A DNA stretch of 64,000 nucleotides, taken from contig JACRLJ010000015.1 of the NCBI GenBank assembly GCA_016215105.1, positions 1,438-65,437 of the forward strand, in the 5' to 3' direction. A program made the position numbers and the translations under genes. The notes under the pieces were generated by a model. That model did not search any database, was not told the origin of the DNA, and worked only from the letters and a program-made list of their open reading frames with translations. Positions 9,745-55,874 of the stretch are shown piece by piece; position 1 is the first letter of the stretch, and each line of letters begins with the position of its first letter. Source of the stretch: Candidatus Hydrogenedentota bacterium (GTDB lineage Bacteria; Hydrogenedentota; Hydrogenedentia; Hydrogenedentales; SLHB01).

Positions 9745-9752
9745 GGCTGTCG

Positions 9753-9794: not shown

Positions 9795-9874
9795 TTGCGC
9801 AGGTTTTCCAGAAAGGCGGAGAACGGCCTTGGCTGATAGGTCCTCAACAGCAGAACTGGTGGATTGGTTCGGTC

Positions 9875-15923: not shown

Positions 15924-15963
15924 GGAATCCGGCCAAAGAGTCAGCTTTATGACGCGGCGCGGC
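15924..15963. repeat. Repeat family A, short form (A3).
   Basis: GGAATCCGGCCAAAGAGTCAGCTTTATGACGCGGCGCGG in a convergent intergenic region. Confidence 0.65.
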
Positions 15964-16052
15964 GGTGTTCTGGCGAGGGAGACGTCACACGCGCCGTGGC
16001 TGACGCGCCGCGACACAGTATCTGCCGTTGGAGAGTCTCGAGCGCGCTCGAC

Positions 16053-17301: not shown

Positions 17302-17652
17302 GCCAATCCTCCGCTCTCAATGCCGTACAGGAAGGATTTCGAGGAAGGCCGGGCGCGGCTGGCGCGCCTCCAACTTCCCAAACCGCCGCTTCCTGCAATA
17401 CAACACACACGCGCTGACTTCACGACGCCACCGGCGTAGCCACAGAGCAACACTTTTCACACTCAAAGCCGTACGCGCCTGCCCCAGGTACCTATCTGGA
17501 CTGCGGAAGCGTCAGTCCCCAGACTAGCAACAGCGGAATTATGCCACAGCGCTGCAGTATTCCGCAAGTAATTTTTGAGCGTCGACTCCAACAATACGGA
17601 CAAATATCTCAGATTGCGTAAAATCACGCAGTCGCGTCCAGTTCAATGCCTA

Positions 17653-17778
17653 GGAATCCGGCCAGAAAGTTAGCATTATTGCGCGGCGCGGCCAGAAAGC
17701 ACTTGTAAGTCGTTCAATGCCATCGCTGGCTCGTAGGGACTCTTGCTATTCGGAAGCTTCCTGGCCGCGCCTCTAAAG
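17653..17778. repeat. Repeat family A, long form (A4).
   Basis: GGAATCCGGCCAGAAAGTTAGC...GCGCGGCGCGGCCAGAAAGCACTTGTAAGT...CTGGCCGCGCCTCTAAAG. It pairs with copy 6531..6656 and sits in a divergent intergenic region. Confidence 0.7.
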
Positions 17779-27964: not shown

Positions 27965-28051
27965 GCTGGGTTCCGGGACGTGATGAGACGGGATGGGAAC
28001 TAATGGGATGGGAATCAATGCGAAATCCGTCTCCGTGATTGGTAAGGGAAA

Positions 28052-28181
28052 GACGCCGAATTTCGCACAACACTGACACGCGAATTTCAGCATCAAGAAC
28101 AAGCGGGCGTCGAGCTTGTGTCGAGAGAGGGACAGACACCGAATTTCGCACAACACCGACGTGCGAATTTCGGTGTCAGTC
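28052..28181. repeat. Two related imperfect palindromes/direct repeats downstream of amtB.
   Basis: 28052..28094 reads GACGCCGAATTTCGCACAACACTGACACGCGAATTTCAGC. 28131..28181 reads GACAGACACCGAATTTCGCACAACACCGACGTGCGAATTTCGGTGTCAGTC, with a near-perfect 17-bp stem. Seen directly in the sequence. Confidence 0.6.
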
Positions 28182-28203
28182 CCAAGCGCGTAATGTAGGT
28201 TCG

Positions 28204-30073: not shown

Positions 30074-30360
30074 AATTCAGGAATTCCCTTTCACGTCCCT
30101 TGCGCGCTGGACGGGCGCGTCGAGCACAAAGCATAGCACACCGTTTCGCTGTGGTTCTTTTGTCATCTTGCAGTTGCGAAATGGCGCCAAGTCTGAGAAC
30201 CGCGCGGTTTCCCGGACTCGACCCCATCCCCGGACACTATGATACCCAAAGGCCCGCTTTGGTTTCCGGCGCGGAATTCGCAGACTCCAGAGGAGGCGAC
30301 GGTCTGCGAAAGGCACCCGAAATGAGCAAGGTTTTGCCAATCCGATACTGGACTACTAAC

Positions 30361-30475
30361 GTGTCATTCTGAGCGGTAGCGAAGAACCTAACCCGTGCAA
30401 GTTGAGCGCCCTGCTCCTTACGCACGGCTGTTGCACGTTGGCAGGAGATTCTTCGCTACCGCTCAGAATGACACG
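30361..30475. repeat. Repeat family B, full copy (B2) with about 27-bp terminal inverted repeats.
   Basis: GTGTCATTCTGAGCGGTAGCGAAGAA...TTCTTCGCTACCGCTCAGAATGACACG. About 85% identical overall to 55658..55773. Confidence 0.85.
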
Positions 30476-30533
30476 TTGTTGGGATCTATTCGGGAGGGTA
30501 CGGGGCAGGATTCCGCGGGCTTTTTGTACCCCC

Positions 30534-33426: not shown

Positions 33427-33545
33427 CGCGGGCCGAATCAGCAGCCGCTGGCAGAGCTGGCGGTATGAGGAATGTCCCTACGGCGGCCTGGCCGCGACGA
33501 TATAGTCTATGGTGTGGATGCTCGGATCGGATGCACGACTGCTAA

Positions 33546-33576
33546 CGTGCCATTCTGAACGGTAGTGAAGAATCTA
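33546..33576. repeat. Repeat family B, degenerate left arm (B3).
   Basis: GTGCCATTCTGAACGGTAGTGAAGAATCTAT versus GTGTCATTCTGAGCGGTAGCGAAGAATCTAA. Confidence 0.5.
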
Positions 33577-33650
33577 TCACCGGCAGAGCCGGAAGATGAC
33601 CTATGACTTAGCACGCGTGGTCACAACCAAGAGCGCCAGTGCATCGACGA

Positions 33651-36600
33651 CTACGGCGTAATTGAGCACTGCGGCAGGTCTTTCTTGAGGATTTTCAGGG
33701 CGCCTGCGGAGACCTTGGTCTGCGATAGGTTCAGCTTGCGCAATTGCGTGAATCCGGACAGGACCGTCGTAGCCTCGTCTGTCACGGGAGTTCCCGACAG
33801 GTTCAAATCGATCAGGTTGGGCAGCTCCTTCAGGGATTCCAGTCCCTTGCCGGTCACCTTTACGTTCAGCAACGTGAGGCGCTCGAGCTGGGTCAGCGCG
33901 GCCAACTCGGCCAAGCCCTCGTCCGTCACTTTGCTCGAGGCGATCTGCAGTTCGCGCAGGCCGGTGAGCTTCGTCAGGTTCCGCAGCTCCGCGTCGGTCG
34001 CAACTCTTCCCATCAGGATGATCGTGTTGAAGCTGTTCTTGTCCAGTGAACTGAGCGCGGTCAAATCCTGCGCGGCCTCGCTGTCGGTTTGGAGCTTGAG
34101 TTCGGCGCCTGGAGGCACTCCGACCTTACCCTGAGCGGGCCCGAGTTTGGCCCACTGCTGCGGGTCTACCGAACCCAAATTGCGGCTGAACAAGGTTCCG
34201 ACGGCTCCGCCGTCACCGAAATTCAGCAATCGCGGCGGCACGGCCAGTCCCGTGTCGCTGGTTCGCGACGAAATAACGGTCTTGACGGAGTCAGTCAACG
34301 TGCCGAACGAGAGGATCCCTTTGGATTCGAGGAACCACAACATGCCAACAAGAACTACCACTGCCGCCACCGCGAACAGCATCAACCGGGAGCGCTCGGG
34401 CGAATCCTGCGAGCCCTTCAAGCGGGTCCCAATTTTGGCCATCGCCGCGTCACGATCTTTCAGCGACTTCCGCAGCTTCTCGACTTCCGCGTGCGCCTTG
34501 GCCAGATCGCCGGACTTATCCCCTTGCGCTTTCCGCAGCGCATCGAGCTCCGCAGCCAGCTTTTGCTCGGATTCGGACGCGTCGCCCGTCTTCGCGCGCA
34601 ACGAGGCCAATTCCTCTTGGAGCGCCGAGACTTCCTCTTCACTTTGCGAGCTGTGCATGCTCGCCGCGACCATTGCTTCGTCGCGATCCGCCAGGGCCTT
34701 CTTGAGCGCCTCGACCTCGGCCTGCGCTTCGGACAGCGCGCCAGCCTTGTTGGATTGTTCGGCGCGCAACGCCGCAAGTTCCTCCGCCAGCTTCTGCTCG
34801 GACTCAGAGGCCTGACCTGTCTTCGCGCGAAGGCCTTCGAGTTCCTGGCGCAGCGCGTTCATGGCGTTTTCGCTGTCCGCGTTCCGCTGCGCCGCGGCGG
34901 ACATGGCTTCGTCGCGTTCCGTGAGCGATTTCTTCAGCGCCTCGACCTCCGCGCGGGCTTCGTCGAGGGCGCCGGATTTGTTGGTCTGCTCTTTACGCAG
35001 CGCTTCGAGTTCGGTTTCGAGCTGCCGCTCGGATTGAGACGCCTGGCCAGCCTTGGCCTGGATGGCCTCCAACTCTTTCTTGAGCGCCTCGACGGCCTTT
35101 TCGCTTTCGGAACTGCGTTGCGCGGCGGCGGACATGGCTTCGTCCCGCTCGCCGAGAGAGCGTTTGAGCGCCTCGACTTCCGCGCGGGCTTCGTCGAGCG
35201 CGCCGGACTTGTCGCTCTGTTCTTTGCGCAGCGCTTCGAGCTCGGAGACCAACTGCTGTTCCGATGTGGACGCCTGACTGGCTTGCCCGCGCAACGATTC
35301 GAGTTCTTGTTGCAGCGCGCTGACGGCCTTTTCACTTTCGGAACTGCGCTGGGTAGCGGCGGCCATGGCCTCGTCGCGTTCGCCCAAAGAATGTTTGAGC
35401 GCTTCGACTTCCGCCCGCGCCTCGGCCAGCGCGTTAGTCTTGTTGGTTTGTTCCGCGCGCAACGCCTCCAATTCACGCGCCAGTTCCTGTTCGGAAGTGG
35501 CCGCGCGCGCCGCGTTCGAGCGCAGAGCATCCAATTCTTGATTCAGCTTGGCCACCGCCGCCGCGCTCTCGGTGCTATTCTTGGTGGCCGTCGCCATGGC
35601 TTCGTCCCGCTCGCTTAGCGTACGCTTCAATGTGTCGAGTTCGGACTGCGCGCCGGTCAACTCGCCGGTCTTCGCCGCTTCGTTGGCTCGAATGGCGTCC
35701 AATTCGCGGGCCAATTGCTGTTCGGAAACCGAGGCCTGTTCCGCTTGCGCACGGATGGCGTCCAGTTCGCGTTTGAGCGCCGTAACGGCCTCGCCACTCT
35801 GCGAGCTGGCCGCGGCAACGGCCTTCTCGCGCTCGGCGAGGGTCTTCCGCAACGCGTCCAACTCGACCCGCGCGCCGGTTAGCGCCTCGGACTTATTGCT
35901 CTCCTTGGACCGCAACTCCTGCAGTTCCGCGGCCAGCGCTTTTTCGGATTTCGCGGCTTCGGCCGCTTTCACGCGCAGACCACCCAATTCGCGCTCCAGC
36001 GCGGCGACCGCTTTTTCGCGTTCGGCGTTGCGCTTGGCGGCTTCGGCGATGGCCACCTCGCGGTCGGACAAGGTGCGCTTCAACGCGTCCAACTCGGAGC
36101 GGGCGCCGGCCAGGGCCTCGGTCTTGCTGCCTTCCTTTTCCCGAAGCTCGCTTAACTGCGCGGCCAGGGCCTTCTCGGACGACGACGCGCGGTCGGCCTT
36201 GGTTCGCAGGGCCTCCAGCTCGGCTTGCAGCGCGGTAACCGCTTTCTCACGCTCGGCGTTTCGTTGCGCGGCCTCCGCGATGGCTTTCTCGCGCTCGGAA
36301 AGGGTTTGCTTCAACGATTCGAGTTCGGTTCGGGCGCCAGCCAGCGCTTCGGTCTTACTGTTCTCCTTGGCGCGCAACTCATTGAGCTGGGTGGTTAGGG
36401 CCTGTTCAGAGGAGGACGCGAGTTCGGCCTTTGCGCCGAGGGCGGCGACTTCCTGCTGCAAGGCGGTGACAGCCTTTTCGCGCTCGGCGCTGTGTTTGGC
36501 GGCTTCCGCGATGGCGGCCTCGCGCGACGACAGTGTCTTCTTGAGGAGTTCGAGCTCTGTTCGAGCGCCCGCCAACGCCTCGGTCTTGTTGCCTTCCTTT

Positions 36601-37772
36601 TCGCGGAGCTGCTGAAGCTCGGCCGTGAGGGCTTTTTCAGAGGTCGCAGCGCGATCCGCCTTGGCGCGGATGGATTGAAGCTCGTTTTGAAGAGAGGCGA
36701 CCTCTTTTTCGCGTTCGGCGTTGCGCCGGGCCGCCTCGGCGATGGCCCCTTCACGGTCAGCCAGCGTGTGCTTGAGCGATTCCAACTCGGTTCGGGCGCC
36801 GGCCAAGGCTTCGGTCTTCGTGCTTTCCTTGGCGCGTATTTCCTTCAACTCCGCCTCGAGAGCTTGCTCAGACGACGCGGCGCGCTCGGCCTGTCCACGG
36901 ATGGATTCGAGTTCCTTTTGCAGCGCGGCAACGGCTTTCTCACGTTCCGCGTTTTGGCGCGCGGCTTCGGCAATGGCCATTTCGCGATCCACTAAGGTCT
37001 GCTTCAACGACTCGAGTTCGGAGCGCGCCCCCGACAACGCTTGGACTTGTTGGCTTTCCTTGGCGCGCAGGTCATTCAACTCGGCCGCCAGCGCCTGCTC
37101 GGATGATGACGCCTGTTCGGCGTTCTGGCGGACCTGTTCGAGTTCCTCGCGGAGAACCGCAAACGCTTTTTCCTTTTCAGCGGTCTGCTTGGCGGCCTCT
37201 TCGATAGCCTTCTCGCGCTCGGATAGTTCCTTTCGCAGCAGCTCCAATTCGGACTGCGCGCCTGATAGTGCTTGAAGCTGCTGGTCCTCTTTGGCCCGCA
37301 GTTCTTCGAGTTCACCGGAGAGGTCCTGCTCAGCGCCGGTCTTTTGCTGGGCTTTCGCGCGGAGCTCCTCGAGTTCCTTCTGGAGTGTTTGTACGGTGCG
37401 CCGCAACCCCGACCGGTCGATCTCGTCGGATTGCTTGAGTTTGAGCGAGGCCTTCAAGGCTTTCGCCTCGAGTTCCTGGGCGCCCAGCCAGGACTGGATT
37501 TCCTTGCCCTGCTCCGGGCTCATCCAGCCGCTCAGCGCGGTGGAATCCTTCCGAACCTGGCCGATCCGGTTCACGAGGGCGTCGCAGGCGGCTCCGGCGT
37601 CGTCCAGCAGGTCCAATGCCGCCAAACTCTGCGCCCGCATGTAGACAATACGGACGCTGTTCGGCAGCGCCTGATCCAATTCCTCCAACACAGCGAGCAC
37701 GTCCAGGTACTTTTTCCCCTGGAACAATCCCGCGATTTGCTCGTACTTTCGCTCGGTCTCTTCTGGGCTCAT
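33651..37772 (-). CDS. Giant (1373 aa) single-pass membrane protein. N-terminal TPR-like segment, about 13 tandem 77-aa coiled-coil repeats, a TM helix, and C-terminal leucine-rich repeats.
   Basis: Repeating unit ALAGARTELESLKQTLSEREKAIAEAAQRNAEREKAVTALQAELEALRTKADRASSSEKALAAQLSELREKEGSKTE. TM helix LMLFAVAAVVVLVGMLWFL. C-terminal LRRs (LTKLTGLRELQIASSKVTD..LTQLERLTLLNVKVT..LPNLIDLNLSGTPVTD..LRKLNLSQTKV). Shadow ORFs on both strands were rejected. Confidence 0.85.
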   Translation of the reverse strand: MSPEETERKYEQIAGLFQGKKYLDVLAVLEELDQALPNSVRIVYMRAQSLAALDLLDDAGAACDALVNRIGQVRKDSTALSGWMSPEQGKEIQSWLGAQELEAKALKASLKLKQSDEIDRSGLRRTVQTLQKELEELRAKAQQKTGAEQDLSGELEELRAKEDQQLQALSGAQSELELLRKELSEREKAIEEAAKQTAEKEKAFAVLREELEQVRQNAEQASSSEQALAAELNDLRAKESQQVQALSGARSELESLKQTLVDREMAIAEAARQNAEREKAVAALQKELESIRGQAERAASSEQALEAELKEIRAKESTKTEALAGARTELESLKHTLADREGAIAEAARRNAEREKEVASLQNELQSIRAKADRAATSEKALTAELQQLREKEGNKTEALAGARTELELLKKTLSSREAAIAEAAKHSAEREKAVTALQQEVAALGAKAELASSSEQALTTQLNELRAKENSKTEALAGARTELESLKQTLSEREKAIAEAAQRNAEREKAVTALQAELEALRTKADRASSSEKALAAQLSELREKEGSKTEALAGARSELDALKRTLSDREVAIAEAAKRNAEREKAVAALERELGGLRVKAAEAAKSEKALAAELQELRSKESNKSEALTGARVELDALRKTLAEREKAVAAASSQSGEAVTALKRELDAIRAQAEQASVSEQQLARELDAIRANEAAKTGELTGAQSELDTLKRTLSERDEAMATATKNSTESAAAVAKLNQELDALRSNAARAATSEQELARELEALRAEQTNKTNALAEARAEVEALKHSLGERDEAMAAATQRSSESEKAVSALQQELESLRGQASQASTSEQQLVSELEALRKEQSDKSGALDEARAEVEALKRSLGERDEAMSAAAQRSSESEKAVEALKKELEAIQAKAGQASQSERQLETELEALRKEQTNKSGALDEARAEVEALKKSLTERDEAMSAAAQRNADSENAMNALRQELEGLRAKTGQASESEQKLAEELAALRAEQSNKAGALSEAQAEVEALKKALADRDEAMVAASMHSSQSEEEVSALQEELASLRAKTGDASESEQKLAAELDALRKAQGDKSGDLAKAHAEVEKLRKSLKDRDAAMAKIGTRLKGSQDSPERSRLMLFAVAAVVVLVGMLWFLESKGILSFGTLTDSVKTVISSRTSDTGLAVPPRLLNFGDGGAVGTLFSRNLGSVDPQQWAKLGPAQGKVGVPPGAELKLQTDSEAAQDLTALSSLDKNSFNTIILMGRVATDAELRNLTKLTGLRELQIASSKVTDEGLAELAALTQLERLTLLNVKVTGKGLESLKELPNLIDLNLSGTPVTDEATTVLSGFTQLRKLNLSQTKVSAGALKILKKDLPQCSITP
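34530..37330 (-). repeat. Intragenic tandem repeat, period about 231 bp (77 codons), about 12-13 units, encoding coiled-coil heptads.
   Basis: Periodicity is visible in the protein translation and in recurring DNA strings such as CTTGAGCGCCTCGACCTCCGCGCGGGCTTCGTCGAG. Confidence 0.85.
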
Positions 37773-39515: not shown

Positions 39516-39541
39516 CGCGCCGCCGATCGTGAATACGGCTG

Positions 39542-39582
39542 GGAATCCGGCCGAGGAGTCGGCGTTCTGGCCGCGCCTCTAA
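39542..39582. repeat. Repeat family A, collapsed short copy (A5) overlapping the GH20 stop codon.
   Basis: GGAATCCGGCCGAGGAGTCGGCGTTCTGGCCGCGCCTCTAA contains both family A termini. Confidence 0.65.
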
Positions 39583-41363
39583 TTCGCCTTCAGCAGGGCG
39601 AGCAAATTTTCCATCGCGCCCGCGCTCTCTTTAAGCCCGCCTGACCGGTTCCGGGCAAGCCATAGCTGGCGGTATTGCGGGATGATGGGGGCCAATTCCG
39701 CCGCGAGGCGGCTGCGCACATCGCGTGGGAGTGCGGAGGTAGCGACTCCACCGGCTTTTGCGCGCGCGATGCCCAGGTGGCACGCGAACCGCGCGAGGTT
39801 TGCGTCCACGGCAAATTCGTCGCGAATAAGTTGCGCGTCGGAGGTCTTCATTCGCGCGTTTGGCAACCGCGCCATGACTTCGTCGACGTAGGCCAGCGTC
39901 TCCTCCATGTCCTTCGCCGACAGCGTTTTCAGAAAGGACTTGGAGAACGGCTTTTCCGTGCAGTGCAGAAGCAGACCGTAGAAGGTCGTGTTGTTACCGG
40001 GAGTGATGCCGGTTTTTTGGTAGGCGTTGCCGAGGTCGTACGCCAACTTGCCCATGACACCCGCTTCGTCTTCAAATGCGTAGGCGTCGAGGATGCGAGG
40101 TATATCCGCGCCAGCGTTCGTCTGCACGCACCAACTGACCGCCGCACCGTAGGCGAAGCCAAGATACGAAATGGGCAGGCACTGCCAATGGCCGCCGTCG
40201 CCCCAGTCGGTGATCAGGTACCCGATTGCGCCATTGGCCAAACCGTTCTCGCCAGCATTGCGGAGGTTGGCGACCGCGTTGTCGGTTCGGCCTACGAGTG
40301 AATTCCAGCTCGAAGTGCCAGGCACCACGTAGTAGGAGATTCCTGAACTCGCGAAGATTTTCCCATGTTCAAGGAAAGGATGTTTGGCCTCGTAGCCCCA
40401 CTCCATGGCGACCACGTCCTTGGGCAGTTCGGGGATCAGCTCCTTGTGGTTCATGATGATGACGCAGTCCGGGTCCACGGGACACAGGTCGCCTCCCCCG
40501 CCGGGCATTTCGCCGAGGTGTTTGTACTGTGGATGTTGCAGCCAGCGGCCCATGTGTCCAAACGAATTTTGATTGGGAACCAGCTCGATATAGCGCTCGC
40601 GGCAATACTTATCCAACTCCTGGATCTGATGGGCCGTCATGGGAGAGGCGTCCTGCCATACCGTGGGGTGGTTGCGATACGAGAAGGTGTGCTCGGTGTA
40701 CAGTTGCAGCTGGTTGAGCTTCCAACTGGCGAACTTGTCCACAAGCGCGTAGAGCGTTTCCATTTCGGGGACTTTGTCGCGCGCGACGTCGAGCATCACG
40801 CCGCGATTGGGAAAGTCGGGCCAGTCCACGACGTGTGCGAGCGGCAGCACCCCGCTGGCGCGCGCCTGTTGAGCAATCTGACGTATCGTCTGGGCGGCGT
40901 AGAACACTCCGGCTTCATCATGGGCGGTGATGCGAACACCGCTGGGGCCGATCGCGAGGTCATATCCCTGCGCGTGAGGCGCTGCCGCGGCGTCCACCTT
41001 GACCGAGGCCTGAGGAGCCGCCTTGTCCGCGCGGGAAGGCAGACTCTGCAGCGCGCCGAGCACAAAGCGCCGGATTTTCTCCTGCTGTTCACTCGATAGA
41101 CCGTTCCCGTCAACAGCGACATCGCCGGGGGCCAATTCGAAGGCCGGCTGCGGCGTATTGATATCGGCTTGGCGCGGCGCTGGAAGAAGGGGCCAGTCCA
41201 GGCGCTGTCCCGGCGCTACCGCCGGCGCGGCCTTATGCGACTTCTGCGGCTTGGCGTGCGTCGCGGATCGATCGGGGGCATGTTGCGGTCCGGAAGCACA
41301 CCCGGCCATTAGGAAAAGCGCCGCAAGAGACGGTAGAACGACGCCCAGTTGGTTTATACGCAT
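39579..41363 (-). CDS. Glycoside hydrolase family 20 beta-N-acetylhexosaminidase-like lipoprotein.
   Basis: Lipobox LFLMAGC. GH20 domain-2 and catalytic-start motifs (GYDLAIGPSGVRITAHDEAGVFYAAQTIRQI; VVDWPDFPNRGVMLDVARD). Confidence 0.8.
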   Translation of the reverse strand: MRINQLGVVLPSLAALFLMAGCASGPQHAPDRSATHAKPQKSHKAAPAVAPGQRLDWPLLPAPRQADINTPQPAFELAPGDVAVDGNGLSSEQQEKIRRFVLGALQSLPSRADKAAPQASVKVDAAAAPHAQGYDLAIGPSGVRITAHDEAGVFYAAQTIRQIAQQARASGVLPLAHVVDWPDFPNRGVMLDVARDKVPEMETLYALVDKFASWKLNQLQLYTEHTFSYRNHPTVWQDASPMTAHQIQELDKYCRERYIELVPNQNSFGHMGRWLQHPQYKHLGEMPGGGGDLCPVDPDCVIIMNHKELIPELPKDVVAMEWGYEAKHPFLEHGKIFASSGISYYVVPGTSSWNSLVGRTDNAVANLRNAGENGLANGAIGYLITDWGDGGHWQCLPISYLGFAYGAAVSWCVQTNAGADIPRILDAYAFEDEAGVMGKLAYDLGNAYQKTGITPGNNTTFYGLLLHCTEKPFSKSFLKTLSAKDMEETLAYVDEVMARLPNARMKTSDAQLIRDEFAVDANLARFACHLGIARAKAGGVATSALPRDVRSRLAAELAPIIPQYRQLWLARNRSGGLKESAGAMENLLALLKAN

Positions 41364-45048: not shown

Positions 45049-48006
45049 TCATTCGACTCTAGGGTTGGCCCAGACGGGGCGGGGGGAGGTGGGGCTTTCT
45101 CCGCCGCCTGTCATGATAAGGCGCAAGCGGTCGGCGCCGGCTGTGTCTACGTCTACGGTTTGGGGCGGCTGCTGAGGCGCGAGTGGGCCGCTGTCGAAGA
45201 CTTGGCGCCAGTCCTTGTCGCGGCGGACTTCTACTTTGAACGCGCAGGTGGTCTTGGCGGTGGCGGGAACGCTGTCATCTATACCGACGCGAGCGGTGAA
45301 GCGTTGGGCGGCGGCGAGGCTACCTTCGAGGGCGTAAGTGAGCCGCGCCTCGGCGCCGTTTGGCGTATTGACAAGTTGCATGATCAGACCCTTCTTGTAT
45401 TCAGTCCCGCCCAGGCGGAGCGGCTGGTCGTGAGGGGCTCTATTCTTGAGGAGGCCGAGTGAACCCAGCCCGTCCGGGCCGGTGTAGTCGATCTCGTCGA
45501 GATCGCTGAGATAGACCCCGTGCCCGGCGCCGAGGTATGCGGCGGTGAAGGTGGCGGAAACAATTTCGGACGTCTCGTTAGCGTGCGCGCCGCGTCCGAA
45601 CGCAGCGGCTTTGATGGTGGTGGTTTGTGTGAGCCGAATGGGCCGGCGATATTCCGGAGAGGTCGCGGTTGGGTCGGTCCCATCCAGCGTATAGCGTACG
45701 CCGGCGCGCGCGCCACGCCTATTGGGCGTCAGCCGCAGTTCCGTTTCACCCACAATGAATCTGGATGACGGCGACAGAACAGGCGCGCGCAGAGGAAGCC
45801 GCCGGCGGTATGGGTCGGTGTAGAGTCCAATCTCGTCGAATGGGATCTTCTTGAACCCGAGTTTGTGGGCGGGGGAATTTGCGCGCAAGCGGAAGTCTTC
45901 GCGGTCTGGGGCGACGACCCCGCCGTCGCCAAGGCTAACGACGTTTCCGGTCTTGCCGAGTTCGGTCTTAATCGCTTCGTCGTCGTGGCTATACGTCTGG
46001 CTGTGGCCATCGCCGCTGGGTGATCCGGTGAAGACGACGGAGTTGGCGATCAGGTTCTTCTCGAGCTTTACGTCCGCCAGACTGGCCTTGGCGCCCAATC
46101 CAAGGAAGTGGGGACCCGTACTCACGTTGCAGCGGATAATGTTGTCTTTGGGAATGATGCGCAGCGAGGCCTGAGCGTCGCCTTTCGCAAAGTCCTCGGC
46201 CAATCTCGCTAAGACAGGGTAGCGCGTGCTGTAAGGCGGTTGATCGTACTTGATGCGCTCGAGCCGCTCGACCATTTCCCACGGTCCGCCGGGCCGGAAC
46301 ATACTCAGGTCTTCCCAGACGTTGAAGCGGTACGTGCGCGCGCAACGGAGAAACAGGTTGTTCTCAATCGTCATTCCACGGCCGCTGTTGGTCAAGAACC
46401 CCTGGTCCATGTCGCAGAAGACGTTGCCGTACAGGTGGATTCCGCCGCAGGGCAGGTCGGGATAGATGGTGAAGCAGCCGAGTTCGCCGGGGCCGTGGAT
46501 GTTGTGAAAGTAGTTATAGCGGAAGACGTGGCCCATGTAGCTCCAGTCCATCGCAGAATAGATGACACCGACATCGCCGGTTTCGTGAGCAATGCGCGTG
46601 AACTCGCAATACTCGATCACGTGGTCATTCCCGCCATAGGACACGCCTTGGTGGGGGGCATCGTGAACATAGCAGTGCGTCATGCGATTGCCGACGCCGT
46701 TCAGCGAAACCGCGGGGTGATAGGTTTTCTGAATTCGAGCGAAGTGATGGATATCGCAGTTGTCCACTACGTGGCCGCCCGGCGACAGGGTCGCGCGGTC
46801 GCCGCCTTCGACGCCGATGCCGGTCGAGGCGACCTCATAGATGTCGCAACTGCGCACCGTGTGACGCGCGCCGCCTTTGATGTCGATGGCGGTCCGGCCA
46901 ACATTTCGGACAACGCACCCGTCGATTTCGTTAGATGCGCCGCCTTTCACAACCACGGCCTCGGCGCGCGAACATTCGAACGTGATTCCGCGCAATGCGG
47001 CATGCTCGACGTTGTCCATCACGATCATCGGCTGTTCCAAATCGGGAAACATCACGTCCGACTTGTCGAGTGCCGCCGGAGGCCAGAAATAGACGATGCG
47101 ATTCTGGCGATCCAGGTACCATTCGCCGGCCTGGTCAAGTTCTTCGAGGATATTCAGGAAATAGTAGCGCTGGCCTTTGGTATAGCCGTAGCCGTGATAC
47201 GGTGGCTTCGGCCAGATGAGACTCGTATCGAAATCAATGCGTTCGACAGGCTCGTATTCATCCGACCAGTCGTAGGTCCAGTAACCGTGTACCCAGATAT
47301 CCGATGCGCCGGACCATTGTTTCGGGCGGTCGCCGTCGTACTGGAACGGCCCGCGATGCCGAGTGAGATTGGGGTCGTCCTTGTCTATGAACTTGAACTG
47401 CTTGTCAGGCGGGACATCGGCGATTTTGAGCCAACCCTCGTTTGGATAACGGGCCAGAGGCATGTAGTGGTGGTTGAAGAAGAGCTCCGCGCGCGCGCCG
47501 CTCTGTGGTTGTACCGTACCCAGGGCCTCAACACCCGACTCCTTCAGATCGCACTGCATGACGTGTTCGCGCGCGTCGGGGCTCAGACGAGCGCGCACCG
47601 TTTCGTCGCTCACGGCCTGCCACTTGGTAAGACGCGTTCCGCCGATGAGGCGTACCGATTCGCCCTTGGCGGCCTGCCAGACGGCTGGCGCGCGATCCGT
47701 CCCGGAGTCCTCCGGACCGAGGAGCAGGGTCTTGGAAATGCGGTAGATTCCTTCGCGCAGGACGACCGTGCGATTGTGGCTCCTGGGGACCGACCGCAAT
47801 GCGTCGCGCGCCCGTTCGAGTGACGCGAACGGTTTCGCGATGGTCCCGGGATTTGCATCGTCGCCCGAGGGAGAAACGTATACCGTGTCCGCTGACGCGG
47901 GCTGTCCGAAAGCGAAGAGAATGAGTAGTGCGGCGAGTGAGATGAAGACGACGGTAAGGGCAGAATGAAGATATCGCGCGCGAGCGGCGCTGGAGAATTT
48001 ATGCAT
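45049..48006 (-). CDS. Secreted right-handed beta-helix (pectate-lyase-fold) protein with C-terminal CHB_HEX_C-like and NPCBM domains.
   Basis: Signal/TM N-terminus. Parallel beta-helix repeats (NVGRTAIDIKGGARHTVRSCDIYEVASTGIGVEGG...). YTLDGTDPTATSPEYRRPIRLTQTTTIKAAAFG (chitobiase C-terminal-like). Terminal NPCBM-like module (YLSDLDEIDYTG...LRLIMTGGGESPTSPRPVWANPRV). Confidence 0.8.
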   Translation of the reverse strand: MHKFSSAARARYLHSALTVVFISLAALLILFAFGQPASADTVYVSPSGDDANPGTIAKPFASLERARDALRSVPRSHNRTVVLREGIYRISKTLLLGPEDSGTDRAPAVWQAAKGESVRLIGGTRLTKWQAVSDETVRARLSPDAREHVMQCDLKESGVEALGTVQPQSGARAELFFNHHYMPLARYPNEGWLKIADVPPDKQFKFIDKDDPNLTRHRGPFQYDGDRPKQWSGASDIWVHGYWTYDWSDEYEPVERIDFDTSLIWPKPPYHGYGYTKGQRYYFLNILEELDQAGEWYLDRQNRIVYFWPPAALDKSDVMFPDLEQPMIVMDNVEHAALRGITFECSRAEAVVVKGGASNEIDGCVVRNVGRTAIDIKGGARHTVRSCDIYEVASTGIGVEGGDRATLSPGGHVVDNCDIHHFARIQKTYHPAVSLNGVGNRMTHCYVHDAPHQGVSYGGNDHVIEYCEFTRIAHETGDVGVIYSAMDWSYMGHVFRYNYFHNIHGPGELGCFTIYPDLPCGGIHLYGNVFCDMDQGFLTNSGRGMTIENNLFLRCARTYRFNVWEDLSMFRPGGPWEMVERLERIKYDQPPYSTRYPVLARLAEDFAKGDAQASLRIIPKDNIIRCNVSTGPHFLGLGAKASLADVKLEKNLIANSVVFTGSPSGDGHSQTYSHDDEAIKTELGKTGNVVSLGDGGVVAPDREDFRLRANSPAHKLGFKKIPFDEIGLYTDPYRRRLPLRAPVLSPSSRFIVGETELRLTPNRRGARAGVRYTLDGTDPTATSPEYRRPIRLTQTTTIKAAAFGRGAHANETSEIVSATFTAAYLGAGHGVYLSDLDEIDYTGPDGLGSLGLLKNRAPHDQPLRLGGTEYKKGLIMQLVNTPNGAEARLTYALEGSLAAAQRFTARVGIDDSVPATAKTTCAFKVEVRRDKDWRQVFDSGPLAPQQPPQTVDVDTAGADRLRLIMTGGGESPTSPRPVWANPRVE

Positions 48007-48192: not shown

Positions 48193-50067
48193 TTACTTTG
48201 CAGCAAAAAGGGCCTCGGCCTCCGTCAGAGCCTGTTCAATGCGTTTGACGAGCTTGTCGTTTGCCGCCTTCTCCTCGGCAGAAACGGAACTCTGCCAATC
48301 GCTATAGTCCTTTCTAGCTCCGTCGAGGTATTCCTTACACAGGTCAGGACTCCAACCATCCTGGGTAATGAGTTGATAGCACAACTTAGACAGCGCCAGC
48401 GCCGACCCTAAACAGGCCTCGCGCCGAACGGCCGGGTCACTGGCGTTGTCGCGCGCCGCGCTGAAACAGGCCGACGACTCGAAGTACCCGGCTCCTTGAA
48501 GCAGGGCCCATCCTTGGCCAAGCCCCTTCCGCTTTTCCATGCGTGCCCGGGCGCGCTCCTTGAGCAGGTCATGCAGACGCCGGACAAACCCTGGATTCTT
48601 GAGCGTCTTCGCATCGCCCGCGAGCCAGCCGATGTCCATCTGAACTTGACGTTCGTCCGCATACTTCGTAACGTCCGCCAAGTGCTCTTCTGCCGCAGTT
48701 TCCCACGCGGCGCTATCGTTAGACTTCTGATACAAATCCATAGCAAAATGGCCAGCGGGCAATAGCGTATCCGTGTCGCCGAGCGCGCGGGCAGCGTTCC
48801 TGATGGCTACGGCCCTTTCCAAGAAAGGTTTCAGTTCCTCTGTTGAATGCTGCCATCCGGACACGCTAAGTTTCCAGATGTCTTTGAAAAACCGGTAATA
48901 GTCTTCTCTCGGATTCCCCCAGCCAAGCGGAATGGGATCGCGGAGTTCTTTGTCTACAGACACGCCCTCGGAGTAGGCCGTCGCCTTCCCGAAGGTCATC
49001 TGCATGACGGTTTTGCCTTCTACCAGAATCTCAAAACGCTTCGGCAGTAGCCCCTCCGAACCCGACTTCGCATAGGACCAGCGGATTGTCCGCGCGCAGC
49101 CCACAGGCTGACCGCCTGTCCGGCCCGCGGTCTTCTCGTCTTCGGGGGTTAGAGCACGCTCGGCCACCACCATCTCTGCCTCCGAATCGGCTGTGGCGTC
49201 CGTTCCGGGCGGCCAGGTAAGTACGGCCAGAGGCTCTGGTCCGCTGTTCGAGAACAGTCGAACCGTTGTTGGATGTTGTTGACTTGCATTCGCGCCAAAC
49301 TCATATTCCGCACGGGAGAGGCGCCCGCAATAGAACCACGGCTTTATCGTATCCCACCGGGCGGTAAGCACCAGAGGGGCGTCACTGGCGCCGGTTGATG
49401 GCGATAAGCCCGGCGACACACAACGCGTCTGGGCGAATTGGTTTACCAAGTATTGTCTGACTTGATGGTCCCTGGGCGCCAGTAGCGGTGACTTGTCCAG
49501 CGGCCCCAAATTATCCATCGTCCCGATCTGGCGGACTTCGAGGTCGTGAACGCCGGGAAAATAGGTCTGAAGTAATGGTCCTGTGGCGGATAGCGTAAGC
49601 CCAATCGGTTCATAGAATATGCCTTGCGCCCGGTCAGAGGGTGATCTACTGATGACTTCAACGCGGCTGCCTTCGCGATTGCTAACCACTACGCCCCAAA
49701 GTTTTCCCGCTTTCGCGTCATCTTTGTGATATTCCTGATAACTGAGTTCAAACGGGATGAGGATCGGCGTTCCGCAAGTCCGATAATCCGTGAAGACGAC
49801 CTGCGAACCTTCGGCGGACGGACGAGGCACGGTAAGACGGGGGCCCGGGGAAAGAGCGTCCCACAAGAAGCCGATGACTTCATACGCCTGCAACGCATAG
49901 GCGAATTGACTGAACGCCTTGGCCCGAAAATAGGCCGCATTCGACTCCTCCGTCGTTGGATACGCTAAATCGGGGGCTGTGGCCTGTTGCTGCGCTGCCG
50001 CGGTAGCGCACGCAATGACCACTGCCCCGAGACACGCGATAAGCTCTCGCGTCAGATCCCGTCTCAT
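48193..50067 (-). CDS. Hypothetical secreted protein (624 aa), no recognisable domain.
   Basis: Trimmed to MRRDLTRELIACLGAVVIACATAAA (signal peptide). The upstream 99 codons of the ORF are Arg/Cys-rich and overlap the neighbouring gene. GC is lower than the flanks. Confidence 0.6.
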   Translation of the reverse strand: MRRDLTRELIACLGAVVIACATAAAQQQATAPDLAYPTTEESNAAYFRAKAFSQFAYALQAYEVIGFLWDALSPGPRLTVPRPSAEGSQVVFTDYRTCGTPILIPFELSYQEYHKDDAKAGKLWGVVVSNREGSRVEVISRSPSDRAQGIFYEPIGLTLSATGPLLQTYFPGVHDLEVRQIGTMDNLGPLDKSPLLAPRDHQVRQYLVNQFAQTRCVSPGLSPSTGASDAPLVLTARWDTIKPWFYCGRLSRAEYEFGANASQQHPTTVRLFSNSGPEPLAVLTWPPGTDATADSEAEMVVAERALTPEDEKTAGRTGGQPVGCARTIRWSYAKSGSEGLLPKRFEILVEGKTVMQMTFGKATAYSEGVSVDKELRDPIPLGWGNPREDYYRFFKDIWKLSVSGWQHSTEELKPFLERAVAIRNAARALGDTDTLLPAGHFAMDLYQKSNDSAAWETAAEEHLADVTKYADERQVQMDIGWLAGDAKTLKNPGFVRRLHDLLKERARARMEKRKGLGQGWALLQGAGYFESSACFSAARDNASDPAVRREACLGSALALSKLCYQLITQDGWSPDLCKEYLDGARKDYSDWQSSVSAEEKAANDKLVKRIEQALTEAEALFAAK

Positions 50068-51242
50068 GTCCTCTGCCTCCTTGTCCCTGTCTTGGCGCCT
50101 CGATATCTCCGAACCACAGCAGCAAAGGCTGCGGTGGCAAGAAGCCCTGCACCCGCCGCGCCTGTCAAGAGAACCTGAGAGGACCACCGCGCACGGCCGG
50201 GATCGTGTCCGGAGCCAACTTCGGAAGTCTTCTCGGAAGGTGCGATAGGTAACTTGAGAAGATGCGAGGTCCCATCGCCGTCCTGCCGACCTTCTTTTTC
50301 TGGTAGCATGGCCGGCTTGTTCATAATGCTGGCCATGTCCCCTTGAACCTGCGTAATGTCCCACGAACTGACCGGCTGGCGCTGCTCGTAGGGAGAGTTC
50401 TCGGCTGCCGGGTCACCTGGCGGCCTCAAATGTGATGTATCCACCCTGAAGAACCCGCCTGGTATGTTCAGTTCTCTGAATTTCTCGAGCAGTTCGACAA
50501 GCTTGTCACTTGACCTCCAGGACGGCTCAATCGTTTGATAGAGCCCGCTTGCCAGCAATATACCCAAGACAGGATGGAGCTTGTCCGGGTGCGCCAAGTC
50601 ATTCCGGACCTCCGCGATGGTCTCCTCCGTTGTTTTCACAATGTCCTTTCGAAGTGCGCTTTCCGCTTCGTCACTGAGCGGCGCCTTGAAGCTGGGTACG
50701 AGAGGATTCGCTGCAGCGGCTCGTTGGTTGCGGTCGAGTTCAGCGGCAAATGACAACAAAGATTCTCTCTCGGTCTCGTTTTGGACCTCTGCCGCCGTTC
50801 GCGTCACGCCATCGCGAATCAAGAGCAATATCGAGTCCAATTGACGATTTATCACGTCCTGCTGATCCGCCGGTATTGGCGGTCTGGCCAGGTAGTCCTC
50901 CACCGCAATACGGTACCTCTCCGCAAGGATTTCGATTTCAACTGGCGTCTGTCGGTAAATGTTGTTGACGCTCCAGACCGTAAAGTCGGGCGTGAAGCCC
51001 AGCAGCATTCGTTGTTCGTCAGAAGTAAGCGCCCTGCCCCCCGTCTGAGTGAGGACTCCTTCGTAGGCGCGGGCAACGCTATCGACCGTTTCCGGTGTCC
51101 AATTGACGTAGTAGTCACGCATCCACGCGCGAAGTTCCGACAACGTCTGTACCGGCGCCGTACTACCTAGAGCGGTCAGCGCGAAAAGAAGCGCGACGGC
51201 GAACAAACACAACGAACTAGCGTACAGTCTCTGACCAGACAT
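50064..51242 (-). CDS. Hypothetical secreted protein with a C-terminal hydrophobic anchor followed by a basic tail.
   Basis: Trimmed to MSGQRLYASSLCLFAVALLFALTALG. C-terminus VLLTGAAGAGLLATAAFAAVVRRYRGAKTGTRRQRT. 4-bp ATGA overlap with the downstream gene. Confidence 0.55.
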   Translation of the reverse strand: MSGQRLYASSLCLFAVALLFALTALGSTAPVQTLSELRAWMRDYYVNWTPETVDSVARAYEGVLTQTGGRALTSDEQRMLLGFTPDFTVWSVNNIYRQTPVEIEILAERYRIAVEDYLARPPIPADQQDVINRQLDSILLLIRDGVTRTAAEVQNETERESLLSFAAELDRNQRAAAANPLVPSFKAPLSDEAESALRKDIVKTTEETIAEVRNDLAHPDKLHPVLGILLASGLYQTIEPSWRSSDKLVELLEKFRELNIPGGFFRVDTSHLRPPGDPAAENSPYEQRQPVSSWDITQVQGDMASIMNKPAMLPEKEGRQDGDGTSHLLKLPIAPSEKTSEVGSGHDPGRARWSSQVLLTGAAGAGLLATAAFAAVVRRYRGAKTGTRRQRT

Positions 51243-51375
51243 AGGACTCTCCGAAGCGCGATCTATCCCCGCGCTACCCACTTCTCTGTACGCTCTTATA
51301 CCGGCGTTCCCAGTTCAGCGCCGCAAGACCAATAATGTCCCTACCGTACCTCTGGCGCCGCTCTGAACGCAATAA

Positions 51376-52194
51376 CTACTTCAGAACGGGCGCGTAGAAC
51401 TGCAGATTGCTGTAGGAGTCATCGAAGTAAGCCATTCCGGTAGCGCTAGTGTCGTAGTTCCGGCTAGTATAGCCGATCGCCTGCCTCTGTATAAGTCCAC
51501 GAGTCCAGATTTCCACAAAACATTGGGCCCCCGGGTCGTCATCCGTAGCAGATACGCGAATCATTTCGGATCTACCCATCGAAGGCATAAGCTCACTATA
51601 GTCCGGCAGCGACCATTGCATACTTAGCTCAGTCTTGCCAATACCGAAACCCGTGATGGAAAATGACGAAGGCCTGTGGTCGGCGCCGACCCAAATCTGA
51701 GTCGACCTGCTCATCGTATCGGAGTTAGCGGTATCTGCCGCCAACTCCGCGCTAGCGCTTGCCACAAGCTTTCCGAAACCACTTGGGCCGCCCATACCGA
51801 CACAAGTGCTAGCCACCGCAATTGCCTGAACGTCAAATTCAAATCTGTACGCGCTCGCAGGCGGTTCGAGTGGGTTAGGGTTATAGGTCCACGTCCACTT
51901 CACGGTCGCGTTGACTTCCTGGTTGGCACCGCCAACGGCACTCCCTGAAGGTACCCTTCGAATCTGTACAGAGGTATACGAATTGCAGTAGAGGTTCTCT
52001 CCCAAGAATGGATTTGCCCTTTGCCCGCGGGAGCTTGACACCGAGCCACACCATCCGTTCGGGTAGTTATAGTACAAGGCCGTCGCAGACAGTTGTTGAT
52101 CTGCATCACCAGAACATCCAAGCGTCCATCCCGCCATTGCATCGGACGCCAGTGTCACTCCAAAGAAAACAATAGCTATCACGAGCTTGTTCAT
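51376..52194 (-). CDS. Hypothetical secreted protein (272 aa), Cys-containing, Ser/Thr/Gly-rich.
   Basis: Trimmed to MNKLVIAIVFFGVTLASDAMA after GGGAGGA. Lowest local GC (about 53%) in the window. Confidence 0.55.
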   Translation of the reverse strand: MNKLVIAIVFFGVTLASDAMAGWTLGCSGDADQQLSATALYYNYPNGWCGSVSSSRGQRANPFLGENLYCNSYTSVQIRRVPSGSAVGGANQEVNATVKWTWTYNPNPLEPPASAYRFEFDVQAIAVASTCVGMGGPSGFGKLVASASAELAADTANSDTMSRSTQIWVGADHRPSSFSITGFGIGKTELSMQWSLPDYSELMPSMGRSEMIRVSATDDDPGAQCFVEIWTRGLIQRQAIGYTSRNYDTSATGMAYFDDSYSNLQFYAPVLK

Positions 52195-52660
52195 GGCATG
52201 ATCCTCCCTTTTTGAGATTACTGAAAACCCCGTAAAGTGAACTATTAGTTTGTCCATTCACTACCCACTGGCCGTAATGTTACCCCCCCCCCGATTTTGT
52301 CAAGGACTTTTTTCATCGCGAACTTTTTCGTCGCGCAGGTCCAATATGGACCTCGCACTACTGGTGGATAGCTTCAGTACATGACGCGCGTCCCGTGCCA
52401 GGCTGCGGGAAGCGCAGGGAGAGAATTGACGGACACGCTATCAGGGAGTAGTGAGTGGCGGGGATCAGTAGTACGGTGAGTACGGCAGTCGCTATGGAAC
52501 CGAGATGTTGCGCGAATGACACCGGTGGACTTGCCTAACTGGGCTCCTCCCGAGTAGGTTGGATCAATTTCCGTTTGTGCCACGGCCCACGCGGCGGGGC
52601 ATAGTCTCGCGCTCTTAACCCGCGCATACGAAGCGCCGCGCCTATTGTGCGCGGTTGTCA

Positions 52661-52703
52661 CACGTTAGCGGCAGATTCTTCGCTGGCGCTCAGAATGACG
52701 CGT
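52661..52703. repeat. Repeat family B, right-arm half copy (B4).
   Basis: CACGTTAGCGGCAGATTCTTCGCTGGCGCTCAGAATGACGCG. Confidence 0.65.
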
Positions 52704-52794
52704 TGACCGCAGTATCTCCGGTTGGTAAGCGTTGGTTCGTTTGGAGTCCTTTGCTTTCAATCGGTTCCGCCGGCGCTTGCTTATTAGACTCGCA

Positions 52795-53814
52795 CTATTG
52801 AACAATGCTCTTCACGAGTTCAGCGACAAACGCGGGGCCGCGGTAGATCAGGCCCGTATAGACTTGCACGAGGGCGGCGCCGGCGTCGAGTTTGTCGCGG
52901 GCGTCCTGCGGGGACATGATCCCCCCCACTCCGATGATCGGGATGCGCCCGTTGAGCGCGCTTCGCATCGCGCGGATAACTTCCGTGGCGCGTTTGGTGA
53001 GCGGGGCGCCGCTGAGACCGCCGGTCTCGCCGCCGTGCGGAAGGTCTTCGACTCCGGCGCGGGACAGCGTGGTGTTGGTGGCGATGACGCCGTCGATCTC
53101 GTGACGGTTCAACGCCTCCGCGATGAAACGGATCTCGTCATCCGACAGATCCGGCGCGATTTTCATGACTAGGGGAACGTACTTGCCATACTGCGCGGCC
53201 AGATTCTTTTGTTCGGACTTCAGCGCCGACAACAGGTGGTCTAGCTCCTCCCCGTACTGCAATGTGCGCAGATTCTTCGTGTTGGGGGAGGAAACGTTGG
53301 CGGCGACGAAGTCCGCATGGGCGTAGACCTTCCGCAGGCACGCCAGGTAATCGTCGACCGCGTTTTCGAGGGGTGTATCGGCGTTCTTCCCGATGCTGAC
53401 GCCGAGGATGCCTTTGTAGGTCCGTCGTTGGATATTCGCTACGAGGACATCCACGCCGTGGTTGTTGAAGCCCATGCGATTGATGATGGCTTCGGCTTTG
53501 GGCAAACGGAACAGGCGCGGTTTCGGGTTTCCGGGTTGCGGGCGCGGCGTGACGGTGCCGACCTCGATGAACCCGAAGCCTAACCCGCCGTACGCGTCGA
53601 CCAAGTCGCCGTTTTTGTCGAGGCCGGCAGCCAAGCCAACCGGATTTGGGAAAGTGAGGCCCATGACGGTCCGAGGCGCGGCGGGTACTGGGCCGGTCAA
53701 CAACCGGGTAATTCCCATGGCGGACATGGGACGCAACGCCATCGCGGTCAGGTGGTGGGCGGTTTCGGGATCGAGCTGGAACAGGATTGGGCGAATGATC
53801 GGGTAGATGGACAT
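52795..53814 (-). CDS. pyrD: Dihydroorotate dehydrogenase (quinone), class 2.
   Basis: [33 protein letters not shown] and IIGVGGI motifs. Confidence 0.92.
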
Positions 53815-55505: not shown

Positions 55506-55657
55506 GCTTCGCTGAGACAAAGATCGTATTATCATCGCCGTTCCTGGACCGGTTTCAGGAACGGCGATTTTGGTCAGCAAGAACCGGCAGAGCCGGATTT
55601 TTGGGGAAGGCCCCTAAGTGGGGCTTACGTTCTCTAATGGGATGCGCTACTGCCAAC

Positions 55658-55773
55658 GTGTCATTCTGAGCGGTTGCGAAGAATCTAACCCGTACACGCT
55701 GAGCGCTCTGCTTATAGCACGCAGACTATTGCACGGTGGCAGGAGATTCTTCGCTACCGCTCAGAATGACACG
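55658..55773. repeat. Repeat family B, full copy (B5).
   Basis: GTGTCATTCTGAGCGGTTGCGAAGAATCT...GGCAGGAGATTCTTCGCTACCGCTCAGAATGACACG. Confidence 0.85.
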
Positions 55774-55874
55774 TTGCGCGGACCATGCGCGAAAGTGCCG
55801 GAAGGGCGAAACCGGTAGATTCGCCATGATTCGGGAATGCGGAGCCCAAACGTCACGGCCATGGAGGGGTTGGT

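Follow-up and report, generated by a model that had tools for sequence, protein, structure and literature searches.

A conserved three-gene cassette of exported proteins in Hydrogenedentota and Planctomycetota, and its possible assembly into a membrane-tethered periplasmic complex

In a stretch of 64,000 nucleotides from a Candidatus Hydrogenedentota bacterium (GenBank assembly GCA_016215105.1, contig JACRLJ010000015.1; the whole stretch is called the window below), we analysed three adjacent genes for exported proteins, lettered A, B and C in the order of their transcription. These genes are a genuine, conserved cassette, and a self-contained one, because the order A-B-C recurs elsewhere while the flanking genes differ everywhere. 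The cassette is rare and has so far been found only in the Hydrogenedentota and the Planctomycetota (Phycisphaerae). The reading that we favour, with slightly better than even confidence, is that it belongs to the cell envelope and that its products form a periplasmic complex tethered to the inner membrane. The evidence that carries this reading comes from the conservation of the cassette, from a domain shared between B and longer forms of C, and from the predicted structure of C.

All three open reading frames (ORFs) lie on the minus strand (Table 1), where a preliminary description of this locus, made from its letters alone, had placed them. The same description had read signal peptides on all three products, a translational coupling of the first two genes that it listed, and a single module with no recognisable domains; each of these observations stands. 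Every product has a hydrophobic N-terminal segment and an AXA-like site, and we called signal peptides on hydrophobicity, charge, such sites and a layout kept across homologues. The coupling is a four-nucleotide ATGA shared, as read from the sequence, by the stop codon of B and the start codon of C (...agg aca TGA for B, ATG aga cgg for C). Shine-Dalgarno-like sequences (AGGGAGGA, GGAGAG and AGGAGG) stand 5' of all starts. On the same strand, pyrD lies upstream of the trio, and 186 bp past C follows a gene for a secreted protein of 985 amino acids, a β-helix protein resembling glycoside hydrolase (GH) family 141 and carrying NPCBM. A promoter and terminator scan found no terminator-like site on the minus strand, and its sole minus-strand promoter-like site falls within gene A. 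The spacer upstream of A is not unusually structured (z = -0.41), and Rfam gave zero matches over the window. The NCBI records for B (MBI5091521.1) and C (MBI5091520.1), on a 138-kb contig, both read 'hypothetical protein'.

No curated sequence family matches A, B or C: scans against Pfam, NCBIfam, PADLOC and PHROGs returned zero families, and those of C against NCBIfam and Pfam gave no match at E ≤ 1. A word-indexed search of 5.8 billion proteins returned self matches only, and sequence-profile searches of the PDB with the A, B and C families gave nothing useful. An exhaustive HMMER search with C against 1.84 billion representatives was more productive, with E values from 3e-43 to 1e-8 for nine relatives that are 22-30% identical to it. 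One of these has C's own length, and six, of 780-890 amino acids, have an extra N-terminal region of about 270 amino acids. Forms with this extension are termed long C here, and those without it, as in the window, short C. Loci were gathered by context look-ups and by a scan of GTDB species representatives, and 16 were fetched. Two (L009 and L010) are from further Hydrogenedentota species; L011 is a Phycisphaerae metagenome-assembled genome with the same sequence as L007, and several others are metagenome contigs. L001 is the same locus as the window, identical in sequence, and carries no independent information.

Homologues of A, B and C co-occur in the same order at six or more independent loci, including L003/L005, L006, L007/L011, L009 and L010, with A and B directly upstream of C. 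L013 has A and a long C, while L002 has B and C; A is always the first gene. The homologues of A were matched at E values of 1.5e-27 (L009), 8e-18 (L006), 3e-9 (L003/L005) and 9e-6 (L007/L011), and at 8e-29 by a hidden Markov model (HMM) in L013; those of B at 2e-19 (L005), 6e-18 (L006), 3e-16 (L010), 1e-14 (L007/L011) and 2e-10 (L009). That A, B and C each have homologues at the protein level in other phyla marks the ORFs as real genes. The spacing of B and C is tight or overlapping elsewhere too (4 bp overlap in L007, 8 bp in L002). The trio is the sole content that the window shares with L009 or L010, and no flanking gene is common to the cassette loci, the neighbourhood being different at each. 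Similarity follows host phylum, with short C from Hydrogenedentota at E 1e-42 to 1e-51 and long C from Planctomycetota at E 1e-15 to 1e-35, and the domain architecture of C sorts with phylum as well. A metagenome scan with an A motif added nothing beyond one contig already known.

Two side observations concern individual copies. Cassette genes are split at three loci, namely A into two ORFs in L010 (5832-6692) and C in L014 (1-2322) and L016 (2-2147), the cause being either decay into pseudogenes or frameshifts in the assembly. In L003, a Planctomycetota-like contig, a five-gene cluster (3065-7109) stands immediately upstream of the cassette, and its last gene is SIR2_2/ThsA-like (PADLOC ThsA, E 8e-10); this cluster, seen on that one contig only, may be a defence system.

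B and C are linked by their architecture. Window B has an N-terminal signal or anchor (residues 5-31), an α-helical domain (about 35-200, a bundle of about 170 amino acids), a low-complexity linker (about 200-355), a hydrophobic segment (357-377) and a tail, RRYRGAKTGTRRQRT, with seven lysine or arginine residues; the helix and basic tail thus agree with what had been described. All complete B homologues keep an N-terminal hydrophobic segment, the helical domain, a variable charged linker, a transmembrane helix and a tail rich in arginine and lysine. When the N-terminal extensions of the C-family members P0004-P0011 were used by themselves to build an HMM, it matched residues 11-197 of window B (E 1.1e-8, 31 bits, where the highest-scoring of 1,000 shuffled B sequences reached 5.5 bits), and hhalign pairs the stand-alone B family with the long-C extensions at 97.3% probability (E 1.6e-11, 166 columns). 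The extension of long C is a paralogous B-type domain in cis. Short C occurs with a separate B at four loci (the window, L009, L010 and L002); long C has a separate B at three (L003/L005, L006 and L007/L011) and none at two (L013 and L008), and zero loci examined had short C without B. A B-type bundle is therefore supplied in trans, in cis or both at every locus examined. Because the B-type domain occurs in cis on C, and because B and C are translationally coupled, the B bundle probably works directly with the body of C. We also considered that B and C might be the split halves of one fused ancestor, and dropped the idea on finding separate B genes adjoining long C forms.

The AlphaFold2 model of window C, built from a family alignment of 10 sequences, has a mean predicted local distance difference test score (pLDDT) of 81.5 and a predicted template modelling (TM) score (pTM) of 0.79. 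Along the chain, it runs from a signal helix and a second helix (residues 40-72) through a β-rich domain to a solenoid of 12 helices, the last at a pLDDT of about 90. The model of P0004, a long form (pLDDT 82.5, pTM 0.67), places an all-α bundle (residues 30-315) ahead of the β and solenoid domains. In Foldseek searches of the PDB, the β domain of both models matched LolA of several species (2w7q_A at E 5e-4, TM score on the target 0.47); further matches were the LolA-LolB complex, LprG, EPDR1, EPD-BCP1, 3bk5, LolA3, RseB and MucB. Models of the LolA clan (Pfam LolA, LolB, MucB_RseB and others, and NCBIfam) did not match the sequence of C at E ≤ 1, and a PDB profile search with C found no LolA-class entry. 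Support for placing the β domain in the LolA/RseB/LprG class of half-barrels is moderate, since TM scores do not reach 0.5 and no sequence model concurs. The C-terminal part is modelled as a stacked-helix solenoid of the tetratricopeptide repeat (TPR) type: Foldseek matched it to BamD (3qky, E 8e-4), the TPR domain of LGN and designed helical repeats, and the C-family profile gave weak matches to designed helical repeat proteins among PDB sequences. The TPR motif of Pfam was not found in C.

The signal peptide of C ends in a lipobox-like VIAC (Cys20) or, alternatively, in a site between AAA and Q. Lipobox-like motifs precede a cysteine at the end of the signal peptide in P0004 (SVAC) and P0006 (AIGC) also, and the cysteine is missing in other family members; judging from these motifs, C may be a lipoprotein in some species. 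Some whole-chain Foldseek matches of C (ApoB, lipovitellin, IFT-A and Ctf4) were set aside as reflecting a generic order of β domain and solenoid (TM 0.06-0.17). We likewise rejected a large lipid transfer protein of the ApoB/lipovitellin kind: its E values (3e-5 to 9e-5) came with TM scores of 0.10-0.17 and root-mean-square deviations of 18-23 Å, the likeness did not recur with the P0004 model, and Vitellogenin_N of Pfam did not match.

A is the more variable partner. Its signal peptide spans about residues 1-21, with a predicted site between AMA and GW; the N-terminal half varies, and the C-terminal 160 or so amino acids are conserved, with the motifs YRFE, W.GA, GLTGxGxG, S.xWS and DDPGxQC. 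A has no match in Pfam, NCBIfam, PADLOC, PHROGs or the PDB, and Pfam scans over all members of its family gave nothing consistent. The NCBI record gives A only 112 amino acids (MBI5091522.1), against 272 in the Logan gene call. Since homologues align to residues 55-272, in keeping with the Logan call, the public annotation is truncated, which may explain why a protein search with A came back empty.

The promoter region of A adds a possible mode of regulation. A -35-like TTGACA and a -10-like TAACAT are separated by 15 nt, made up of AAATC and a run of ten G, with the -10-like hexamer right after the run; twelve G would make this spacer 17 nt. The promoter scan missed the pair because a 15-nt spacer lies outside its range of 16-18 nt. 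The tract is the longest homopolymer in the window. Across the window and the 16 fetched loci, runs of at least 9 nt are limited to this one (the same tract in L001) and to a G12 that L009 has at the corresponding position 5' of A (5629-5640). L010 has an interrupted G-rich tract there, and the Planctomycetota loci have no long G tract. This recurrence suggests that the Hydrogenedentota cassette is phase-variable, by slipped-strand mispairing at the promoter tract. Surface-protein genes of Neisseria and Haemophilus, and the fim promoters of Bordetella, similarly have homopolymer tracts in their promoters, and the cassette tract likewise precedes genes whose products are exported and evolve fast. 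Unlike such contingency loci, the cassette tract has the same length in both assemblies compared (the window and L001, the sole second assembly).

In the arrangement that we favour, the C-terminal helix of B would fix it in the inner membrane and leave its tail in the cytoplasm, and its helical bundle would dock on C from the end of a flexible periplasmic tether of about 150 residues. C may be lipid-anchored in some species. The B-C complex might bind a hydrophobic or amphipathic envelope ligand (a lipid, lipoprotein or glycolipid) in the half-barrel, and/or A through the solenoid, with A as cargo or as a distal, more variable component; in the Hydrogenedentota, the long G tract might make expression phase-variable. 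Since neither an ATPase nor a barrel nor an enzyme is encoded in the cassette, its role is more probably that of a carrier, scaffold or sensor than that of a catalyst. The preliminary description had judged the function of the trio unassignable. This largely still holds, except that C now has a LolA-like and TPR-like architecture and that B is linked to C.

Several points weigh against this proposal. Firstly, the conserved residues of the β domain, a domain that carries the family motif R.EV..R.P.WRSRG..YEPIG, are charged (R135, E137, R141 and E153), which would be unexpected in a purely lipid-binding cavity, although such residues are compatible both with a cavity and with none. Secondly, the putative contacts of C with B and with A are argued from gene fusion and coupling. 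Thirdly, no Lol, Bam or ATP-binding cassette (ABC) partner gene adjoins the cassette, the 30 other genes of the window having been scanned. Finally, the sample of loci is small (about 9).

Comparison with known systems offers partial parallels. The LolA, LolB, RseB (MucB), LprG and EPDR proteins are, like C, exported to the envelope, and many of them are matched by the β domains of both C and P0004; RseB and MucB work, as in the RseA-RseB system, with a bitopic membrane protein through its periplasmic portion. The domain of C is larger than that of this class (about 280 against about 180 amino acids), resembles it at TM scores below 0.5 with no membership of its sequence families, carries charged conserved residues and is fused to a TPR-like solenoid of 240 amino acids. 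The cassette also lacks a LolCDE or sigma/anti-sigma context, with no LolCDE or anti-sigma RseA/MucA genes beside it in the window or any related locus, and the cytoplasmic part of B is a 15-residue tail only. With TPR-type envelope scaffolds (BamD, LpoA and NlpI, for example), C shares a C-terminal α-solenoid that matches BamD and other TPR structures, and several C-family members have lipobox-like signal peptides, in the manner of those lipoproteins. Here the differences are that C has no TPR match in Pfam, a fused β half-barrel and no Bam or penicillin-binding protein context, and that its partners A and B show no relation to known partner proteins. TonB, TolA and LpoB span the periplasm by means of an anchor, a linker and a globular domain. 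B likewise has one membrane anchor, a globular domain and, between them, a long linker of low complexity, but inverted, with the anchor C-terminal and the globular domain N-terminal; there is no similarity of sequence or family and no ExbBD or TolQR, and the likeness is an analogy only. A looser analogue is the BBJ23-29 cluster of Borrelia, a putative export cluster predicted solely from structure (PMC13078400), in which TPR proteins and a LolA-like protein occur with a MacB-type ABC transporter and Omp85. The cassette similarly combines LolA-like and TPR modules for the envelope, but in one polypeptide, within three genes, and with neither an ABC transporter nor Omp85.

A bolder version of the complex, which we regard as unlikely, would make the cassette a phase-variable trans-envelope machine of an undescribed kind, peculiar to the Hydrogenedentota and Planctomycetota. 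In such a machine, B would be an adaptor, tethered to the inner membrane, that positions C, and C a LolA-like/TPR carrier that delivers the variable secreted protein A or a lipid to the cell surface, or displays it there, without an ATPase or a barrel.

Composition bears on a different explanation, that of the preliminary description, which had seen in the trio a horizontally acquired, low-GC accessory module bounded by a repeat. The trio does have a lower GC content (A 53.7%, B 57.0% and C 58.2%; 35 reference genes, 60.4 ± 2.0%), but the dip is smaller than had been claimed, with flanks at 61-62% rather than 62-65%. GC at third codon positions (GC3) is 0.590, 0.628 and 0.638 against 0.741 ± 0.046 (z = -3.3, -2.5 and -2.2), and synonymous-codon scores are low (z = -4.7, -3.9 and -2.6). 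The expected atypical codon usage is thus present, and the trio is the outlier of the window, with the lowest values of both measures. The adjoining spacer (52195-52794) is AT-richer, as described, at 55.3% GC. By tetranucleotides the trio is the most atypical non-repetitive stretch, although it deviates only mildly (rank 6-7 among 61 windows, z about 1). These features, together with a patchy, rare taxonomic distribution and a neighbourhood that changes with each genome, would suit a recently acquired island.

Other hosts speak against it. A GC3 deficit of the same kind is seen in the cassettes of L009 (0.50, 0.58 and 0.66, against 0.80 ± 0.04 in neighbouring genes), L010 (0.62-0.64 against 0.75 ± 0.04), L011 (0.62-0.64 against 0.76) and L008 (0.53-0.55 against 0.69). 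Being present in all other hosts, the deficit is not specific evidence for transfer into this genome; the most plausible reading makes it a trait, common to all hosts, of a gene family that diverges fast and has weak codon bias. The cassettes are only 22-30% identical and track host phylum in similarity and architecture. The window has no tRNA, Pfam scans of its 30 other genes found no integrase or transposase, and no plasmid or viral copies of the cassette were found; the flanks are housekeeping genes (pyrD, ahcY and galK). A viral origin is rejected, there being no viral contigs and no viral fold match in BFVD. The repeat arm is real (52673-52712, with an internal part from 52616), but it is no island boundary: it is a half-copy, upstream of the trio and on that side only, of a dispersed palindromic element with two 33-nt arms (AACGTGTCATTCTGAGCGGTAGCGAAGAAyCT and its complement) about 57 nt apart. 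Five or more copies, full and half, stand in the window, mostly 3' of unrelated genes; the element has no Rfam match and is REP- or MITE-like (repetitive extragenic palindromic; miniature inverted-repeat transposable element). A second intergenic repeat family (TAGGAATCCGGCCGGAAAGTCGGC ... GACGCGGCGCGG ... GGCCGCGCCTCTA) at times adjoins it. Recent acquisition is accordingly not supported, since every host shows the GC3 dip, neither a tRNA nor a mobility gene lies nearby, and the repeat is dispersed and one-sided; we consider a recent island improbable. Older transfers, or mobility of the cassette, may have occurred, given its different context everywhere.

We give similarly little credence to a role in polysaccharide capture or degradation, in which the trio would be a glycan-binding complex, at the surface or in the periplasm, serving the downstream GH141-like/NPCBM enzyme, loosely like the TPR-like binders of the SusD type. 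The proximity of that gene, on the same strand and with no terminator-like site between in the minus-strand scan, invites such a reading. So do a β-helix protein encoded 85 bp after the C gene of L008, GH172 genes in L003 and a GH63-like gene in L013 (each within about 10 kb), the richness of the window in glycoside hydrolases, and the charged conserved residues of the β domain, which suit a polar ligand. Yet the β-helix proteins of the window and L008 share a generic N-terminal motif only, no glycoside hydrolase adjoins the cassette in L009, L010, L006 or L007/L011, and no carbohydrate-binding or SusD-like family or fold was matched. Glycoside hydrolases are frequent throughout these genomes, so the adjacency may be due to chance.

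A slimmer chance falls to a module for anti-phage defence, for toxin-immunity or for contact-dependent competition. Rare proteins that evolve fast and have an atypical composition are what such a module would show; the possible phase-variable promoter fits a contingency locus, and a SIR2/ThsA-like cluster stands beside the cassette in L003. That adjacency is seen at one locus only, however, PADLOC gave zero families for A, B and C, and neither Pfam nor fold comparison revealed a toxin, nuclease, peptidase or pore-forming domain. Moreover, A, B and C all carry export signals, so the cassette has no cytoplasmic immunity partner.

The C-terminus of B had been likened to a sorting signal, which would make B the substrate of a dedicated system (PEP-CTERM/exosortase, LPXTG/sortase, GlyGly-CTERM/rhombosortase or similar) and the trio a sorted set of surface proteins. 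The shape is right in a generic way, a hydrophobic helix with an arginine-rich tail being conserved in the B family. The family alignment, however, has no conserved motif before the helix (no PEP, LPXTG or GG), the sorting-signal models of NCBIfam gave 0 families for B at E ≤ 1, and the helix and tail occur on B only, not on A or C. Processing enzymes, for which the preliminary description had proposed a search, did not turn up: the 30 other window genes and the related loci include no gene for a sortase, exosortase or rhomboid. We find this explanation very improbable. With no conserved motif and no match to a sorting-signal HMM, the simplest reading is a plain stop-transfer anchor whose tail would lie in the cytoplasm, as the positive-inside rule predicts.

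Conservation effectively refutes the idea of spurious or decaying ORFs: the host model scores codon usage in the annotated frames no higher than in the others, NCBI shortens A, and A or C is split at three loci, but all three proteins have homologues across two phyla with order, motifs and topology kept, the AlphaFold models are confident, and Shine-Dalgarno sequences and translational coupling are present.

Apart from the cassette, the window (Table 1) is unusually dense in glycoside hydrolases (GH9, GH29 fucosidase, GH2, GH20 and the GH141-like protein with NPCBM), and a BamB/FG-GAP β-propeller is also encoded in this part; the density fits a polysaccharide-degrading lifestyle. A minus-strand gene encodes a protein of 1373 amino acids with about ten tandem repeats of 231 nt (77 amino acids), coiled-coil-like Pfam matches and a C-terminal leucine-rich repeat; nothing else in the window deviates as far in tetranucleotides (z 4.6), and its AT skew is strong. 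Two intergenic 61-nt direct repeats in tandem (80% identity, 83-nt spacing), beside the gene for diaminopimelate epimerase, may be a regulatory element.

Table 1. Coordinates of the cassette, its predicted domains and promoter-like elements, and of other features of the window.
Feature	Position	Strand	Description or basis
Gene A	52194..51376	minus	272 amino acids, exported; ORF and Shine-Dalgarno sequence
Gene B	51242..50064	minus	392 amino acids, bitopic membrane protein (predicted)
Gene C	50067..48193	minus	624 amino acids, exported (predicted)
-35-like hexamer TTGACA upstream of A	52298..52303	minus	read directly
G10 tract (C10 on plus strand) in promoter-like spacer	52283..52292	minus	homopolymer scan
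-10-like hexamer TAACAT	52277..52282	minus	read directly; inference only
B-type α-helical domain (B residues 11-197)	50652..51212	minus	HMM and hhalign against long-C extensions
B transmembrane helix and basic tail	50067..50174	minus	hydrophobicity; kept in complete B homologues
C N-terminus	50067-49990	minus	lipobox-like or alternative site
C β-rich domain (about residues 80-360)	48988..49830	minus	Foldseek, two independent models
C TPR-like solenoid (residues 386-622)	48202..48912	minus	DSSP, 12 helices; Foldseek
pyrD	53814..52795	minus	upstream neighbour
GH141-like β-helix/NPCBM protein	48006..45049	minus	downstream neighbour
Palindromic element copies	9708-9797, 30339-30478, 33525-33601, 52616-52712, 55636-55776		intergenic
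Second repeat family copies	6528-6653, 9703-9750, 15921-15968, 17650-17775, 39539-39581		intergenic
Glycoside hydrolase-dense parts	1665-11803, 39579-41363, 45049-48006		
1373-residue repeat protein	33651-37772	minus	
Tandem 61-nt direct repeats	28045-28188		intergenic

The analysis shows three protein families outside all curated libraries to form one module in two poorly studied phyla. It also gives them a first structural handle, in a LolA-like half-barrel joined to a TPR solenoid and a membrane-tethered partner domain that is supplied in trans as well as in cis. What looks locally like transfer, a dip in GC3, can turn out to be a family-wide trait, and here only a comparison of these genes across hosts revealed it. 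The recurrent G tract would join a short list of phase-variation candidates from uncultured candidate phyla. Should lipids, lipoproteins or a surface protein be what the module handles, it would bear on the construction of the unusual envelopes of the Hydrogenedentota and Planctomycetota; and were the trans-envelope machine outlined above to prove real, it would be a new route of envelope trafficking or surface display in these phyla.

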